Made by a program: the position numbers and the translations under genes. The notes under the pieces were generated by a model. That model was not told the DNA's origin. It saw only the letters and a list, made by a program, of their open reading frames with translations, and ran no database searches. Of a stretch of DNA of 20,217 nt, positions 3,568-17,624 are shown piece after piece (positions within the stretch are counted from its first letter, which is position 1; the number at the start of each line of letters is the position of its first letter). The stretch is from Elusimicrobiota bacterium (lineage in GTDB: Bacteria > Elusimicrobiota > Elusimicrobia > UBA1565 > JACRDR01): assembly GCA_041694815.1 (NCBI GenBank), contig JBGFSC010000042.1, forward strand, positions 1 to 20,217, written 5' to 3'.

Positions 3568-4008
3568 TTAGCCCCAAGCAAACTGAGAGAGGGCACATGC
3601 GAGTCCGACCACGAGTGCCAGGGGTATGCCTATTATAATGTACGGGGCTAGGGGCGGGACAATATGTGCGACTAAGAGTAGGGCGGGAATAGCGCCCCAG
3701 AATGCAATACCGCCGACCACCTGCTTTGCCCTCTCCCTGTGCCGCGGAAGCTCGGAAGGCGCCGGCTCCTTGACGATGATCGGCCCCGTACGCCTGGCTC
3801 CGGGCGTCCGCGCCTTCGCCCGGCCGAACTTAAATAGGGCGGCGAATCGAGACCCGGAAGAGGAACTCGAGGGATTTCCCGCCAAGCCGGCCATGGTCGC
3901 TCCTTCCCCGAAATCATGGCCGGCGCCGGCCTTAATCGACTCGACAGTTTCGGCCGCCAGAGACGGCGCGACGGCGAGCAAACAGCAGAGAATCCACGGC
4001 AAGTGCAC
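3568..4008 (-). CDS. Hypothetical exported/membrane protein (signal peptide, low-complexity linker, C-terminal hydrophobic hairpin)
   Basis: Signal peptide ending SLAA-E; about two TM segments at the C-terminus; TACACT 6 nt upstream of the GTG. Confidence 0.7.
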   Translation of the reverse strand: MHLPWILCCLLAVAPSLAAETVESIKAGAGHDFGEGATMAGLAGNPSSSSSGSRFAALFKFGRAKARTPGARRTGPIIVKEPAPSELPRHRERAKQVVGGIAFWGAIPALLLVAHIVPPLAPYIIIGIPLALVVGLACALSQFAWG

Positions 4009-4014
4009 GGGTAA

Positions 4015-4103
4015 AGTGTACGCGCCAAACGGCTAAGCCGCCTGAGCCTTTAGGGCGTTTATACGTGGTTTTTAGGACTCCGGGAAATAGGCCTAAGGAC
4101 CTA
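4015..4103 (-). promoter_or_regulatory. Promoter with -10 TACACT and array of ~16-bp operator boxes
   Basis: -10 at 4015-4020. Boxes start at 4043 (TGAGCCTTTAGGGCGT), 4066 (weak) and 4088 (TAGGCCTAAGGACCTA). The layout matches 6340-6429. Confidence 0.65.
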
Positions 4104-4164
4104 TAATACTCGCATGTGCGCCAGCACATCGTAACCCCCTAAATTATGTTGTTCGGCGTTTGTC

Positions 4165-4563
4165 CTAGGGGCAGCTGTTTGGCTTGGCTCGCGGCCGAGA
4201 CGTGAAACGATAACCGTCGGCCTGGGAACGTAGCCCGACGTAGGATCGCATGGCTCGAATACTCAAGCCTATCGCCCGAGGGGTCCGTACAATGGCGGCC
4301 AGCATCGCGGCGCCCTGTTCCGTAAACACCCAAGGCCGATGCGAACTGCCTCCCCGGCCGTAACGATGGGAGCGGTAAAAGGCGGCCTCCTCGCGCGTGA
4401 GCTGAAACGCGAAATCGTCCGGGAAACGATCACGGTTGCGCAACATCAGTCGGGTCAATTGCTCCGTCGGCAAACAGAAAAGCCTGGCCAAATCGGAGTC
4501 GAAAAACACCCGCAAGCCGCCGACATTGCGAACCCGACATCCGAAAAAACGCACCGGGAGCAT
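4165..4563 (-). CDS. ORF6N-domain putative DNA-binding protein, divergent and short
   Basis: RVFFDSDLARLF...RNRDRFPDDFAFQLTREE...GRGG...PWVFTEQGAAML matches the ORF6N signature. Confidence 0.85.
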   Translation of the reverse strand: MLPVRFFGCRVRNVGGLRVFFDSDLARLFCLPTEQLTRLMLRNRDRFPDDFAFQLTREEAAFYRSHRYGRGGSSHRPWVFTEQGAAMLAAIVRTPRAIGLSIRAMRSYVGLRSQADGYRFTSRPRAKPNSCP

Positions 4564-4625
4564 GCCACATATACGATCGGACCTGAAAAAAGTTCCCTGG
4601 GGGTGTGTCTATCGGCCAACAACGG

Positions 4626-4658
4626 TTTTTTGCGCCGTCAAAATGACGGCGCAAAAAA
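4626..4658. repeat. Perfect 15-bp inverted repeat with 3-nt spacer
   Basis: TTTTTTGCGCCGTCA-AAA-TGACGGCGCAAAAAA. Confidence 0.95.
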
Positions 4659-4793
4659 AGCGCCTGACTTAGGACACCGCAACCCCTGGCGCGCCCAGAC
4701 GGCCTCCCTAGGCGTCGCGAGGCCGATTAGCTGTCAAAGTGATATACCGAAAGGTGGAATTCCGCTAGGAAGTCTTCCGAAAACACGGATGGC

Positions 4794-5495
4794 TTAGGAA
4801 ATCCGCTTGCCGATGAATCGGATCAGCCCCATCAGGGCGGCAGGAACAATGATCGACCCGATAGCGACGAACAGAAAGAGTAGCGCCAAAACCCCATCCC
4901 CGAGAGTGCTCAGAGCAGCCGGACCCACTAGTTTCGACAATCCAAGGAGAGCGGCAACCCCAGCATACATGCCCACAAGGAAAGTGAACGCGCCGGTTAT
5001 TCCCGCCAATGCGGAAAAAAGTCCCTTCTTGCCGAGCGAACGGCTCTTGCAGGAGAACCAAGCCACCAGAGATGCGACGATCGCCGGACCCAAAAAGAAC
5101 GCTGCGATCGGGGAATGCCCCACGATCATCTCCTCTATCCTACCCACGAACAGCATGGTGCCAAAGGACGCGCCTCCCAACAGCAAATTTTCCATAGCAC
5201 GATCCTTCAGATCAGCCAGCCTTTGCCTCCAGGATTTAGGCGGCTTATTCGGACCTCCGGGGGGCGAGGGGGGATTCTGGCCCTTGGCCGGCGCCGACTC
5301 GAAGACCGTGGGCGGCTGAGCCGAGGGATCTCCGGCATTCGAAAGGGCTTGGGTGGCGGACGCTCCGTCCTTTTGTCCGGTCTTCTCGAAAAGCTCCGCC
5401 GCCTTAGATGCCTGTTCCTCGGCAGGTTGCTCGGCATGGGCCGCGAGGCCCAAACTAAAGGTAAGGGTACACGCCAGAATAATCGCCGGTTTCAT
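4794..5495 (-). CDS. Hypothetical exported/membrane protein, paralog A
   Basis: Signal peptide (AHA-E), N-terminal region shared with paralog B, Pro-rich linker, about 4-5 hydrophobic segments. Confidence 0.85.
   Translation of the reverse strand: MKPAIILACTLTFSLGLAAHAEQPAEEQASKAAELFEKTGQKDGASATQALSNAGDPSAQPPTVFESAPAKGQNPPSPPGGPNKPPKSWRQRLADLKDRAMENLLLGGASFGTMLFVGRIEEMIVGHSPIAAFFLGPAIVASLVAWFSCKSRSLGKKGLFSALAGITGAFTFLVGMYAGVAALLGLSKLVGPAALSTLGDGVLALLFLFVAIGSIIVPAALMGLIRFIGKRIS
5268..5495 (-). repeat. N-terminal coding module, copy 1 (other copy 6083-6310)
   Basis: Colinear 228-nt similarity; 49/57 aa identical from HAEQ to GQNPP. Confidence 0.92.
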
Positions 5496-5530
5496 CGATG
5501 CCGTGATTTGTCCTACCTCTCCAACAGCCG

Positions 5531-6319
5531 CTATTTTTTATCGAACTTCTTGCCTAGCCAGGCGCCGAGCTTGCCGCCGCCATGAAGACCATTGAATATC
5601 CCGGCCATTCCGCCTAATCCCAGGGCTCCCAGTAGATATAAGGGAAAAACAAGGAGCACCAAAAGGTCGAGCGCGCCAAAGAAACCGGCCAAAGGGCCTC
5701 CGGCTAGCCCGAAAGCCAGCGTCAGTCCCGCGGCCGCGCCCGAGATGCCGCCCAAGATGGAACCCAGGCCCTTGCCTAATGCCTGGCCGGCTTTTTCTCC
5801 CGACCCCGGCGTCTCGGTCGGTTTCTCCGGTTTAGGTCCGGAAGAAAAGAAAGAGTTCGCTATATTGCGCCCCCACCTGGCCCCGTAAGAAAGATAGGTG
5901 GGCGCGGCGATTGCGGCGACCGTGAGGAGGAAGCGCAGGCTGTCCGCATAAGTGGGTTCGGCCTGAGAGTATCCCGCAAGCCAGGAAAGAGAGTTGGAGA
6001 ACAGCAATGCCGCGGCGGCTGCGCCTCCCAGAAATCCTCCGATAATACCTGAAGTCTTGGGTCCATTGGATGCAGGCGGAGGCGGGGGATTCTGCCCCTT
6101 GGCCGGCGCCGCCTCGAAGACGGCAGGGGGCTGCGCCGAGGGATCTCCGGTGTTGGAGAGCGCCTCGATAGCGGGAGTTCCGTCCTTTTTTCCGGTCTTC
6201 TCGAAAAGCTCCGCCGCCTTGGATGCCTGTTCCTCGGCGGGCTGCTCGGCATGCACCACGACGCCCAAGCCCAAGGTAAGGGTATACGCCAAAACGATCG
6301 CCGGTCTGATCAATGTCAT
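5531..6319 (-). CDS. Hypothetical exported/membrane protein, paralog B, glycine-zipper rich
   Basis: Signal peptide (VHA-E), shared N-terminal region, GxxxG-rich hydrophobic C-terminus. GGAGG RBS. Confidence 0.85.
   Translation of the reverse strand: MTLIRPAIVLAYTLTLGLGVVVHAEQPAEEQASKAAELFEKTGKKDGTPAIEALSNTGDPSAQPPAVFEAAPAKGQNPPPPPASNGPKTSGIIGGFLGGAAAAALLFSNSLSWLAGYSQAEPTYADSLRFLLTVAAIAAPTYLSYGARWGRNIANSFFSSGPKPEKPTETPGSGEKAGQALGKGLGSILGGISGAAAGLTLAFGLAGGPLAGFFGALDLLVLLVFPLYLLGALGLGGMAGIFNGLHGGGKLGAWLGKKFDKK
6083..6310 (-). repeat. N-terminal coding module, copy 2
   Basis: Colinear with 5268-5495. Confidence 0.92.
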
Positions 6320-6339
6320 TATGCCTCCGTACTGGCTTC

Positions 6340-6429
6340 AGTATAAAGGAAAGCCCCAGGCCGGGCATGAGCCTTTCGGGCATTCCCCCGTGGGAAAACG
6401 ACCCAGCTCCCCGTAGGCCCCAGGGCCTA
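6340..6429 (-). promoter_or_regulatory. Promoter with -10 TATACT and three ~16-bp operator boxes
   Basis: -10 at 6340-6345. Boxes start at 6368 (TGAGCCTTTCGGGCAT), 6391 (TGGGAAAACGACCCA) and 6414 (TAGGCCCCAGGGCCTA), a 23-bp period. Confidence 0.65.
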
Positions 6430-6431
6430 GG

Positions 6432-6460
6432 TTGCTAAAAGCTCCGTTTTTTTCCATAAT
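6432..6460 (+). promoter_or_regulatory. Sigma70-type promoter of hicA
   Basis: TTGCTA-17 bp-CATAAT, followed by a GAGG RBS at 6472-6475. Confidence 0.55.
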
Positions 6461-6480
6461 AATTTCTAGTCGAGGTTTTT

Positions 6481-6669
6481 ATGAAACGACGCGATCTCAT
6501 CCGACATCTGACCGATAACGGCTGCGTGCTGCTCCGGGAGGGGGGGAAGTACTCGGTGTTCCAGAATCCCGCCAATCAGATCGAGGTGCCGGTCACTCGG
6601 CACCCCGAAATGGCCGATCACACGGCGCGCAAGCTGTGCAAGCAATTGGGCATTCCGCCCCTGGCCTAG
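6481..6669 (+). CDS. hicA: HicA-family toxin homolog, orphan, catalytic His replaced by Tyr
   Basis: MKRRDLIRHL..GCVLLREGGK(Y)SVFQNP...VTRHPEM...ARKLCKQLGIP. Confidence 0.88.
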   Translation: MKRRDLIRHLTDNGCVLLREGGKYSVFQNPANQIEVPVTRHPEMADHTARKLCKQLGIPPLA

Positions 6670-6676
6670 CGGGACG

Positions 6677-8704
6677 CTAGAATCGTATTAGCCGGTAACC
6701 GAAGGCGGGCAAGGATCCCTGGTACTGGACGCCTAGTTCAGGGTCCTCGAGTCGGACCTCCGCTTCCCTCTCGGAGGGATTGGCGAGGATGGCCGCCGCC
6801 CTGAGCCGGCCGGGCTTCGACGGCCTCAGCCAGTAGCCGACCCAATCCTTCCCTTCGGCTGCGATCGGCTCCAAGCGGGGCGCCGGGGCGTCCCGCTTCA
6901 ATTCTCCGGCCAGGGAGAAGGTCTGGCGATAAAAACGCGATATCTTGGGGTCGGCGTTCTTCCAATCGACCTGCACCGGGCGGCCGAACGGGATGGACTT
7001 GGGCCCCTCGACGTTCGGGTCGGCGTTGGAGGCGTCGAAGCCGATTTCCTGAGAGCCGTAGAACAGCAGGCTGCCCGGAAGCAGCAGGGTCAGGAAGGAA
7101 GCGCCTTCCATCCACGGCCCCATGGCCCTCAGGGGCGCTGCCTCGTCGTGATTGCCGATGAAGCTCAACATGCCTGAGCCGCCCTCCTGCCAATGCAGGA
7201 AGGCCTGCCGTTCGATCGCCGCGCGGATGTGGGCTGGATCGCGGCTCGTTAGGGCGTCGTACCAGCCCACATGCCCGCCGGGGCGCTCCATCGTGTTCTT
7301 CCCGTAAATGGAGTCGAACCCGACCCTGGAAAGCTCGTCCCAGCCGTCATAGCCCTCAGCAATGAAGGCCGTGCCGGGGTATTTGCCCTTGATCTCGGTG
7401 ATCAACTCCTCGAGGAACTCTCGGCGCGGCATCTGCACCTCGTCCCCCTTCCAGTTCCGCTGGAAATAGCGGTTGAGTATCTGATAGGCCATGTCGACGC
7501 GCAAGCCGTCGACCTGGTAGTCGCGAACCCATCCTTCGACTATCGAAATCATTTTGCGGCGCAGGCGCGGGTTGGAGTAGTCGAGCTGGGCCGTATCCTC
7601 CCAGAAGGCGAGGCTGCCGTAGGAATCGTAGCCGCCGTGCCGGATCCATCGGCGCGAGCCCCGGGCGTCGACGATATCGAAAAAGCCGCGTGGAGGCGGG
7701 CCCTCGCCGGCGGGCCGCCCGATGAAGAACTCGGGATGTTCCTGGAGCAGTTTCGAATCCATCGAGCTGTGGTTGATGACGAAGTCGATAATCACCCGCA
7801 GGCCCGCTCGATGCGCTCGCGACACGAAGGCCTTGAACTCCTGGGAAGTCCCCAAGTCGGGGTGGATCGACTCATAATCCTGGATCGAATAGGGCGACCC
7901 CCCGGCGCTGCCCATCGCGCCCCGTTTGCCGATGGGAAAAATGCCCATCACCCAAATCGTGTCGAACCCCTGCGCCCGGATCCGGCGGAGGTCCTTTTCC
8001 CGGAAATCGGCGAAGAAGCGCTTCTCTTGGAGGGACTGCGGGCGGCCGCCCTCGGCCTCGCGCTTGCCCTTGAGGTTATAGGCGCGGCAGAATATCTCGT
8101 AGATGCGCGCCGTCTTCGCCCAACGCGCCGAATCCGACGCGGCCACCTTGTCTCGCAAGGATTCGGTGTAGCGGCCGACGAAGGACATCAGCTCTGCGTA
8201 TTGCGCCATCGGCCCGGCGGCGGAAGCCTGGATTTCCCGTATCCGAGCGCGGGCGTCCTCGGCCCAGGACACCGAGCCGAGCAGCGCCTCCAGGTACTTG
8301 AAATAATCCCCGAGATAGCCGTGGAGCTCCGAACGGCCCCTCAGGCGCCCGATGCGGTCCTCGGCGTATACGAACCCTTCCAAACCCGAGCCCTGAGCCG
8401 TGAGCGAGCCTCCGTCCGAAAACCGGAAATGGAAGGGCTTGATCGATCCGTCCGTGGGCCCCTCGCTGAGCAGCTGTTTGGTCGCGCGTAAATCGGGGTA
8501 ATCCGAGCGGGGACTGCCCGAAGCTCCGGGCAGTCCAGTGAGCACCCCTTGGGGCCTGGCGCCGTCGTAGCCCCTCGATAAGGAACCTTCGTCCGAGAGG
8601 GACTCAAGCTGCCGAAGGCCTTCATCGGAGGCGAAAGAAAGGGAAGCGGCGAAAAGCGCCGGGAGGCAAAGAAGCAGGAAACGAAGCGAGGGGCGACGCT
8701 CCAT
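6677..8704 (-). CDS. Secreted GH13 alpha-amylase-family glycosidase with long N-terminal extension
   Basis: GSPYSIQDY, IIDFVINH, catalytic DGLRVDMA / IAEGY / GNHDE. Start placed at ATG 8704 (MERRPSLRFLLL... signal peptide; TAAAAT 7 nt upstream) rather than TTG 8740. Confidence 0.92.
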   Translation of the reverse strand: MERRPSLRFLLLCLPALFAASLSFASDEGLRQLESLSDEGSLSRGYDGARPQGVLTGLPGASGSPRSDYPDLRATKQLLSEGPTDGSIKPFHFRFSDGGSLTAQGSGLEGFVYAEDRIGRLRGRSELHGYLGDYFKYLEALLGSVSWAEDARARIREIQASAAGPMAQYAELMSFVGRYTESLRDKVAASDSARWAKTARIYEIFCRAYNLKGKREAEGGRPQSLQEKRFFADFREKDLRRIRAQGFDTIWVMGIFPIGKRGAMGSAGGSPYSIQDYESIHPDLGTSQEFKAFVSRAHRAGLRVIIDFVINHSSMDSKLLQEHPEFFIGRPAGEGPPPRGFFDIVDARGSRRWIRHGGYDSYGSLAFWEDTAQLDYSNPRLRRKMISIVEGWVRDYQVDGLRVDMAYQILNRYFQRNWKGDEVQMPRREFLEELITEIKGKYPGTAFIAEGYDGWDELSRVGFDSIYGKNTMERPGGHVGWYDALTSRDPAHIRAAIERQAFLHWQEGGSGMLSFIGNHDEAAPLRAMGPWMEGASFLTLLLPGSLLFYGSQEIGFDASNADPNVEGPKSIPFGRPVQVDWKNADPKISRFYRQTFSLAGELKRDAPAPRLEPIAAEGKDWVGYWLRPSKPGRLRAAAILANPSEREAEVRLEDPELGVQYQGSLPAFGYRLIRF

Positions 8705-8711
8705 CACTGTG

Positions 8712-8756
8712 ATTTTAGCCCCTCGAAGTGCCGGAAACAAGGGGTCAGAAGGCCTA
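8712..8756 (-). promoter_or_regulatory. Amylase promoter: -10 TAAAAT plus operator box
   Basis: -10 at 8712-8717; box GGGGTCAGAAGGCCTA at 8741-8756. Confidence 0.55.
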
Positions 8757-8785
8757 GGTTCTTAACAGTTAGCTTGGGAATGATA

Positions 8786-8946
8786 TTTACGCGCCTCGGG
8801 CGCGTGACTCGTCGTGCTTGACGTTTACGCGGTGCCAGGGATTGACTTTCGCCTAGGCGAAAGTCAATCCCTGGCACCATCTTCGCGAGAATTCCCGCGC
8901 TCGGCGCGGTCGTTTGCGCCGAGCCCACGCGCCCAAAGCGCGTAAA
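8786..8946. repeat. Nested palindromic element (REPIN/MITE-like)
   Basis: 21-bp terminal inverted repeats (19/21 match) at 8786-8806 and 8926-8946, a perfect 48-bp palindrome at 8831-8878, and a 9-bp stem at 8899-8924. Confidence 0.85.
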
Positions 8947-16562: not shown

Positions 16563-17624
16563 ATGCGTCTCTTGAAGCTCGCCGTCCTGCTTTATTTGAC
16601 GAGCGTCCGTTCCGCATGGGGAAGGGAGCCCCCTAATGCGGACGATTTCTTTTTTCGCCGACCCCGCGACCTGAATCGGACCGCCGTCCTCCTGGTTAAT
16701 TTTAAAAATCTTCCCTGGAAGACGACTTCTCGAGAAGAGGCGCGCGCGACCGTATTCGATCAAACGGCGCGATTCTTCCGCGAGCAGTCCTACGGTCAAG
16801 TCAACCTCCACGGCGACGTCTTTGATTGGAGAACGCTCGATATCGACCAGACCTGCGAGGAGCTCGAAATCCTGGATGCCTCGCTTCGCGCGGCGCAACG
16901 GCATCCGATTATTCCCGTATCGAGCTACGATCGCCTCATCCTGATCTTTCCCTCGAGGCCGATCATCGGCTGCGGTTGGGCCGGCAAAGGCAGCATCAGG
17001 GGCTGGAGCATCGCCAAGGGCTGGCGGCCGATGAGCGTCAGCTGGATCGCGGGAAGCCCTAATCTTCGCGTATTGGCCCATGAACTAGGGCATAATCTGG
17101 GATTGGAACACGCCAGCTCCGTCAATTGCTTTCTTGGAATACCCGGAGCCTTTTGCAACGATGACGAATACGGCGATGAACGCAATGCGATGGGCGGCGA
17201 CGAGCCGCTCTATCTCGGCGCGTATGAACGCTATCGCGCCGGATGGATTCCCTTATCGGAGCTACCCGAGGAGCCGGGACGCACGGTCATTCGCCTTTCA
17301 CCCCTCGACAAGATCGTGGGCACCAAGGGAATTTTGATCCGCAAGAAGTACGTGGTGGAATTCTTTCGCCAAACTAGCTCTACGCCGTTGATCGGCAACT
17401 GGGTCGACCCGAATTCCGGCGCCCTTGTCCGAGTCCTTACCATGGAGCGGCACGGGAAGGAGCGCGAAGCCTTTCTCCACCCCCATGTGCTCGACCTATC
17501 TCCCGGGCGCGCGGGTTACGCGCTGCCCGTGGGCGGAAAATGGGATTTCGACGAGGATGCCTTCTCGCTGGAGGTGCTCGGCATCGCCGACGGGGAACTG
17601 GAACTCGCCGTCGAGCTCCGTTGA
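16563..17624 (+). CDS. Secreted metzincin metallopeptidase (M11 gametolysin/M6-like)
   Basis: Signal peptide MRLLKLAVLLYL..AWG; FFREQSYG; AHELGHNLGLEHA zinc motif; EYGD..NAMG Met-turn. Confidence 0.9.
   Translation: MRLLKLAVLLYLTSVRSAWGREPPNADDFFFRRPRDLNRTAVLLVNFKNLPWKTTSREEARATVFDQTARFFREQSYGQVNLHGDVFDWRTLDIDQTCEELEILDASLRAAQRHPIIPVSSYDRLILIFPSRPIIGCGWAGKGSIRGWSIAKGWRPMSVSWIAGSPNLRVLAHELGHNLGLEHASSVNCFLGIPGAFCNDDEYGDERNAMGGDEPLYLGAYERYRAGWIPLSELPEEPGRTVIRLSPLDKIVGTKGILIRKKYVVEFFRQTSSTPLIGNWVDPNSGALVRVLTMERHGKEREAFLHPHVLDLSPGRAGYALPVGGKWDFDEDAFSLEVLGIADGELELAVELR

Follow-up and report, generated by a model that had tools for sequence, protein, structure and literature searches.

The DNA stretch analysed here (the window: 20,217 nucleotides, contig JBGFSC010000042.1 of Elusimicrobiota bacterium assembly GCA_041694815.1) contains three promoters that carry 16-bp palindromic boxes upstream of the -10 hexamer; it is contig C11 of a genome of 2.77 Mb and 97.8% completeness (G000). 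We propose that the palindromes, which precede the -10 by 22±1 bp at about 100 promoters of this genome, are putative sites of a single NarL-family regulator, which quite probably activates these promoters with weak -35 elements and, with them, a largely orphan predicted secretome. We regard a promoter code for the secretome as real throughout the class Elusimicrobia and, with comparable confidence, as likely read by an activator resembling DosR and LiaR. A poorly known bacterial class would thus gain a readable master regulon, in which one short promoter pattern marks dozens of orphan secreted proteins per genome together with one candidate regulator; the type of circuit is itself familiar, being of the DosR/LiaR kind.

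Box motif and promoter geometry

The box was described by a matrix trained iteratively on intergenic DNA of G000, and thus on the genome that was scanned with it. Its consensus is the 16-bp palindrome TRGGHCYWWRGDCCYA (half-site pattern TRGGHC-N4-GDCCYA), with G3, G4, C6 and their mirror positions, G11 among them, as the best-conserved columns. At a threshold of >12 bits, 170 sites lie in the 343 kb of intergenic DNA vs 94 in the 2.43 Mb of coding DNA, and five column-shuffled matrices gave 5-22 intergenic sites where the real one gave 170. The first-pass annotation of the window had named enrichment upstream of genes as a test of its regulon, and the sites are distributed in this manner, with 0.79/kb in divergent, 0.50/kb in tandem and 0.21/kb in convergent gaps, the last being depleted. 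Neighbouring boxes are most often 22-24 and 45-47 bp apart. Of the order's 41 genomes, 40 contain the strict palindrome, with 0-6 for reversed-pattern controls. Because the two arms of the box do not covary (the paired count equals the independent expectation, and centre pairs fall below it) and because the centre favours AA/TT steps, the composition of the box suits a protein site and not a hairpin.

The distance between box and -10 is likewise directly observed to be constant. We define a unit as a box with a -10 at a set spacer found with a composite model, which detects 124 units in G000; with this model, 118 units were counted at a spacer of 22 vs 8-22 at six other spacers, a count with some circularity, since such units had served to train the model. 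With an independent, generic -10 matrix, a -10 starts 22 bp past the box in 60 of 732 site-orientations, with 20 at 21 bp, 19 at 23 bp and a background of 0-13 away from the three phased peaks (22, 44-47 and 68-69 bp). The fixed promoter spacing anticipated by the first-pass annotation is thus present as measured to the -10, the start sites themselves being predicted positions. Based on these counts, the regulon comprises about 100 promoters. Among the 97 units followed by a predicted signal peptide, 82 have an in-phase box further upstream and two have one out of phase (the amylase of the window has a single box), and the start codon lies 5-9 nt past the -10 in 47. Because such leaderless-type start codons lie close after the -10, the proximal box can be placed at about -50 to -35, with its centre at -42.5. 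The -35 matches at most three of six positions in 61 of 69 units. Leaderless-type starts are common throughout the genome: in 270 of 2183 called genes a -10 ends 6-9 nt ahead of the start codon, ~3-4x background.

Could the boxes instead be remnants of a REP-like (repetitive extragenic palindromic) hairpin or of a copied promoter cassette, like other repeats in Elusimicrobia? The genome does hold other dispersed palindromes, and one promoter of the window is duplicated on contig C38 with 91% identity. However, the arms lack covariation, the sites are depleted in convergent gaps, and a comparison of the sequences between box and -10 in 86 units shows no relationship (mode 4-5 of 18 positions) save for a few pairs; these pairs are chiefly promoters of paralogs, such as C11:4043 and C38:18675, and the two closest are of this kind. 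Because the spacers are unrelated, the layout is held by selection and not by copying, and we consider an origin of the boxes from repeats largely refuted and extremely improbable.

The three promoters of the window and the genes that they precede are composed as follows.

3568..4008, minus strand: orphan gene of 146 amino acids (aa); signal peptide predicted, two hydrophobic helices at the C-terminus, GTG start codon 6 nt past the -10
4015..4020 (4020-4015), minus strand: -10 hexamer TACACT of the 4008 gene
4043..4058, unstranded: proximal box scoring 9.2 bits, separated from the -10 by 22 bp and centred at about -42.5
4066..4081, unstranded: middle box, degenerate, -0.1 bits
4088..4103, unstranded: distal box TAGGCCTAAGGACCTA, strong, 21 bits, offset by 45 bp relative to the proximal box
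4794..5495, minus strand: orphan gene of 233 aa with a predicted signal peptide, 35 bp downstream of the 6319 gene, own box absent
5531..6319, minus strand: orphan gene of 262 aa; signal peptide predicted, hydrophobic C-terminal helices rich in Gly, GGAGG ribosome site ahead of the ATG
6340..6345 (6345-6340), minus strand: -10 hexamer TATACT of the 6319 gene
6368..6383, unstranded: proximal box scoring 7.3 bits, separated from the -10 by 22 bp
6390..6405, unstranded: middle box, degenerate, -1.5 bits
6414..6429, unstranded: distal box TAGGCCCCAGGGCCTA, strong, 18.3 bits, offset by 46 bp relative to the proximal box
6677..8704, minus strand: GH13 alpha-amylase-family protein with a predicted signal peptide; ATG 7 nt past the -10
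8712..8717 (8717-8712), minus strand: -10 hexamer TAAAAT of the amylase gene
8741..8756, unstranded: single proximal box GGGGTCAGAAGGCCTA, 10.1 bits, 23 bp from the -10

The first-pass annotation had linked these promoters through the boxes TGAGCCTTTAGGGCGTT (4043) and TGAGCCTTTCGGGCATT (6368), which are indeed identical at 15 of 17 positions at these coordinates and precede genes whose products share no significant BLASTP similarity (E 0.16-5.7); the near-palindromes at 4088 and 6414 and the amylase box at 8741 are also where it located them. Its offsets of 23, 23 and 24 to the -10 describe the placement correctly and correspond to 22, 22 and 23 intervening bases. Of the series of boxes that it described at a period of ~22-23 bp, the proximal and distal members are real, but those near 4066 and 6390 are degenerate and the amylase has no box further upstream. 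The word GGCCTAGGTT, which it saw recurring at 6424 and 8751, is present there and has three copies in the genome, but is half a box plus flank and not a separate element. That none of the three promoters has a good -35 needs tempering for the amylase, where a partial -35, TTGTTT, can be read.

The GTG start 6 nt after the -10 makes the 4008 gene likely leaderless; its paralog lies on C38, and it is the promoters of these two genes that are 91% identical. The 5495 and 6319 genes are paralogs over the first 74 aa of the former (77%) and are likely co-transcribed; the ESM Atlas gave no usable match for the 6319 protein. Among the best 13 of 19 relatives with an amylase match, surveyed at lenient thresholds, a box precedes the amylase ortholog in 13/13 and a full unit in 10/13. 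An Rfam scan of the window found no match. Two further promoter-like elements adjoin the distal boxes: a perfect TATAAT at 4102-4107 (plus strand) overlaps the 4088 box at its outer end, faces away from the 4008 gene and is missing from the C38 copy, and a HicA-family toxin gene (PF07927; 6481-6669, plus strand; adjacent HicB not evident) has a TTGCTA-17-CATAAT promoter of its own directly next to the 6414 box.

Target genes

As the first-pass annotation had expected for exported proteins, and as we observe directly with a purpose-made heuristic, signal peptides are enriched downstream of the boxes: they are predicted after 69 of 87 units with an open reading frame (ORF) vs 496 of 2583 box-less -10s treated alike (odds ratio, OR, 16). 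Counted by gene, the proportions for called first genes are 64/112 vs 180/827 (OR 4.8), counts that are too low because the gene caller overlooks many regulon genes, the 4008 gene among them. The candidate regulon is far bigger than the three genes from which it was first suggested.

A Pfam scan of 100 downstream proteins chosen from the 124 units (the omitted 24 include the 10 that lack an ORF as well as both from the window, which were scanned separately) left 63 without any family; the matches include 11 WD40 propellers, five FGE-sulfatase-like proteins, nine proteases, two nucleases, one lytic transglycosylase and one carbon-nitrogen hydrolase. In a distant relative from another order (G104), 25 of 29 units precede signal-peptide proteins, and 26/26 scanned targets, several of them cut by the locus edge, have no Pfam family. 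Three targets in G000, each behind a box promoter, combine a predicted signal peptide with a Walker A motif:

C9:33955-35661: Lon without the N-domain
C9:20388-22457: FtsH-like protease without the second membrane helix
C20:63846-66542: large AAA_5 protein

Ordinary Lon and FtsH have separate genes in this genome. A single-sequence fold of the signal-peptide Lon was uninformative, with a predicted local distance difference test score (pLDDT) of 40.7. Among the Lon loci of relatives, 4/11 start with a signal-peptide-like N-terminus as judged by eye (G012, G020, G034 and G040; another family), with a full unit in G020 and degenerate boxes in the other three. As a possible marker of the regulon, a F[DE]G tag after the signal peptide was rejected, showing no enrichment (5/97 vs 13/574, p 0.16); of seven post-signal tag patterns, one reached p 0.003, post hoc. 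The window also holds a secreted gene outside the regulon, an M11/M6-like metalloprotease (16563-17624, plus strand) with a signal-peptide-like start and no detectable box.

The composition of these genes bears on whether the regulator might bind the boxes and yet repress, or lift the silencing of foreign genes, without recruiting polymerase. The GC content at third codon positions (GC3) is 0.69 in regulon genes vs 0.83 in other genes, as would befit foreign DNA, and the proximal box touches the -35 position. With such poor -35s, however, there would be little to repress, and the rigid 22±1 bp spacing, as in DosR activation, suits contact with polymerase. We therefore judge repression or silencing to be quite improbable and favour activation.

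The candidate regulator and its Tad-pilus neighbourhood

The first-pass annotation had postulated a LuxR/NarL-family regulator encoded elsewhere in the genome, and one exists:

G000:C27:50865-51545: NarL-family response regulator of 226 aa, with receiver PF00072 at residues 9-120 and LuxR/GerE helix-turn-helix PF00196 at 156-209

It is the only PF00196 match in G000. The phospho-acceptor set is intact (D13, D14, D59, S87 and K109), the best sequence matches in the PDB are VraR/LiaR (E 1e-39), with DevR also among the best solved relatives, and among the matches listed (25 families) no NCBIfam equivalog cut-off was reached. Residues K186, K189 and N190 align with LiaR K174, K177 and T178. LiaR K177 equals DosR K182 (PMC4482077; here and below, statements on published systems are limited to the parts of the sources cited), and by way of LiaR the three residues would correspond to DosR K179, K182 and N183, residues that contact GGGACT bases in reading a box whose centre lies near -43.5, beside a suboptimal -35 (PMC13486717). 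The KT[VI]KN helix is present in all stretches with at least 65% identity to this regulator.

The likeness to DosR/DevR of Mycobacterium tuberculosis extends to the DNA. Dev boxes are tandem and phased, with conserved G4, G5, C7 and G12 (PMC3177182), which equal G3, G4, C6 and G11 of the Elusimicrobia box; both systems have helically phased tandem palindromes with GG-x-C half-sites, combine strong with degenerate boxes, place the proximal box at -42.5 or -43.5 by a suboptimal -35 (the start site being predicted in our case) and share a K-x-x-K-N recognition helix. The 16-bp T(X)4C(X)4G(X)4A frame of LiaR (PMC4482077), VraR and CesR fits as well, and the CesR site TCAGHCTnnAGDCTGA (PMC4447274) differs from the Elusimicrobia box only at positions 2-3 and 14-15. 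In contrast to DosR, the box period is 23-24 bp instead of 21 (-42.5/-63.5 at tgs1), the half-sites are TRGGHC instead of GGGACT, the targets are about 100 promoters of predicted secreted orphans instead of dormancy genes, autoregulation was not found at the regulator loci, and the neighbouring kinases are HisKA-type and lie within a Tad-pilus cluster. In contrast to LiaR, Thr178 is replaced by Asn, and in contrast to LiaR, VraR and CesR the targets are secreted hydrolases, WD40 proteins and orphans instead of membrane-stress genes, and HisKA_3 was not found in G000.

Members of the DosR/LiaR ortholog group are encoded in an autoregulated operon with a family kinase, and a HisKA_3 kinase is the usual partner of a NarL protein. 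We rejected the assignment of the C27 system as a DosR or LiaR ortholog system on the basis of its longer period, the lack of autoregulation, the absence of a detected HisKA_3 kinase and its different targets; by analogy, it likely works like DosR without being such an ortholog system. Specifically, phosphorylated regulator dimers would bind the strong upstream box, would cooperatively occupy the proximal box that lies in phase with it (about -42.5), and would recruit sigma70 RNA polymerase as DosR does. The signal, the weakest step of this scheme, would likely come from a neighbouring Cache-domain kinase and a REC-kinase hybrid of the Tad-pilus cluster. A literature search (including PMC7739468, PMC10385382 and 10.1101/2023.11.21.568195) found no description of the regulon in the parts of the sources that it covered; subscription papers were outside its scope.

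We surveyed 161 genomes of the phylum, taking at least 65% identity to the C27 regulator as a close ortholog. Regulator and promoters co-occur: the 67 genomes with an ortholog all have at least one unit and 64 have at least three (median 16), whereas none of the 94 without reaches three (maximum 2). Five genomes of the same class without an ortholog have 0, 0, 0, 1 and 0 units, and the two of them that were checked have other GerE proteins. Of the alternative DNA-binding families surveyed (GerE, OmpR and CRP), OmpR-family domains were not found in G104 (29 units) and G111 (25 units), and CRP-family domains are present also in box-less G100 and G102.

Several observations weigh against our interpretation. 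The co-occurrence is essentially one clade trait and not a set of independent events, so that any clade-specific gene would track it; the close ortholog of TadC, for one, is distributed just like the regulator. G004 (26 units, 88% complete) and G001 (11 units, 79%) lack a close ortholog; because the regulator's neighbouring kinase is missing there too (best 37-42%), an assembly gap fits. G102 and G043 have relatives at 51-52% identity with the KTVKN helix and zero units, that of G102 beside a Tad cluster; a rescan of 399 kb of G102 covered variant boxes too and found none, but this last negative is weak, as the de novo scan also missed the motif in the G000 positive control. There is no sign of autoregulation, a box lying within 350 bp upstream of the regulator in just 2/40 loci; HisKA_3 (PF07730) was not found in G000 despite its completeness; and none of the 124 units precedes the Tad cluster. 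As for the secretome, 27/124 units have no predicted signal-peptide ORF, and the heuristic scores 7.6% of internal fragments as positive.

The boxes might accordingly be activator sites of another clade-specific DNA-binding protein, with which the NarL regulator merely shares its clade. The dependent co-occurrence, the units in G004 and G001, the missing autoregulation and the limitation of the family survey to GerE, OmpR and CRP all speak for such a protein. However, the motif fits the cited DosR, LiaR and CesR boxes column for column, and the genome has one protein of that fold, with matching contact residues. We consider another protein unlikely and retain the C27 regulator as the candidate.

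The regulator is the last gene of a Tad-pilus/kinase cluster that encodes Flp-like, TadE, RcpC and secretin proteins, a ParA-like/TadA fused ATPase, TadB/C, TPR and receiver proteins, a kinase and a REC-kinase hybrid. Its position is conserved: gene order of the cluster is maintained in G104 and G111, and the hybrid kinase is immediately upstream of the regulator in 41/80 ortholog loci, many of the remaining loci being a second paralog by nuo genes or lying on short contigs. The kinases adjoining the regulator are HisKA-type, and the G104 counterpart of the cluster kinase has a dCache-HAMP sensor. Because no HisKA_3 kinase was found in G000, these neighbouring kinases are the likely input of the regulator. 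The second regulator copy, about 80% identical, occurs in two related families, where many genomes have it oriented divergently to the nuo genes (L064, L069, L071, L072, L082 and others).

Tad systems mediate prey contact in Myxococcus (Kil; PMC8460266) and in Bdellovibrio, whose TadZA fusion is described as atypical (10.64898/2026.07.08.737194) and is resembled by the ParA-like domain fused to the TadA ATPase here. Unlike in these predatory bacteria, the Elusimicrobia cluster, for which a role in predation would be hypothetical, terminates in kinases and a NarL regulator and is retained in genomes of 1.2-1.9 Mb; the cited parts of neither paper mention Elusimicrobia. The conserved place of the regulator at the end of the Tad cluster, together with the exported ATP-dependent proteases, raises a hypothesis about lifestyle, namely contact with prey or host. 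We tentatively speculate that most of the class might run a contact-triggered programme of attack or host exploitation, in which a TadZA-type pilus and kinases would act through one regulator on about 100 promoters of fast-evolving exported effectors. This rather doubtful reading comes from the gene neighbourhood and the ATPases with predicted signal peptides only: under it, the signal-peptide Lon, FtsH-like and AAA ATPases need ATP and would be of use only within the cell of a prey or host. If it were true, the box would be a sequence tag by which the effector arsenal could be read from the genome of any class member.

Other elements of the window and genome

An ORF6N gene (4165-4563, minus strand), with at least three relatives in the genome, is adjoined by a 33-bp palindrome (4626-4658) that repeats on C13, C14, C27 and C35; gene and palindrome lie just past the end of the promoter stretch copied on C38. 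Between glyS and the amylase promoter is a perfect palindrome of 48 bp (8833-8880), whose end words CCTGGCAC, GTGCCAGG and AAGTCAAT are among the genome's most over-represented intergenic 8-mers; because of this over-representation between genes, the palindrome is likely a member of a REP-like family. An identical end sequence of ~30 bp, likely derived from an insertion element, adjoins box arrays at the ends of contigs C12, C17 and C33. A further box array (G000:C34:37086-37239) lies between a divergent TPR protein and tRNA-His, with a full unit on the tRNA-His side.

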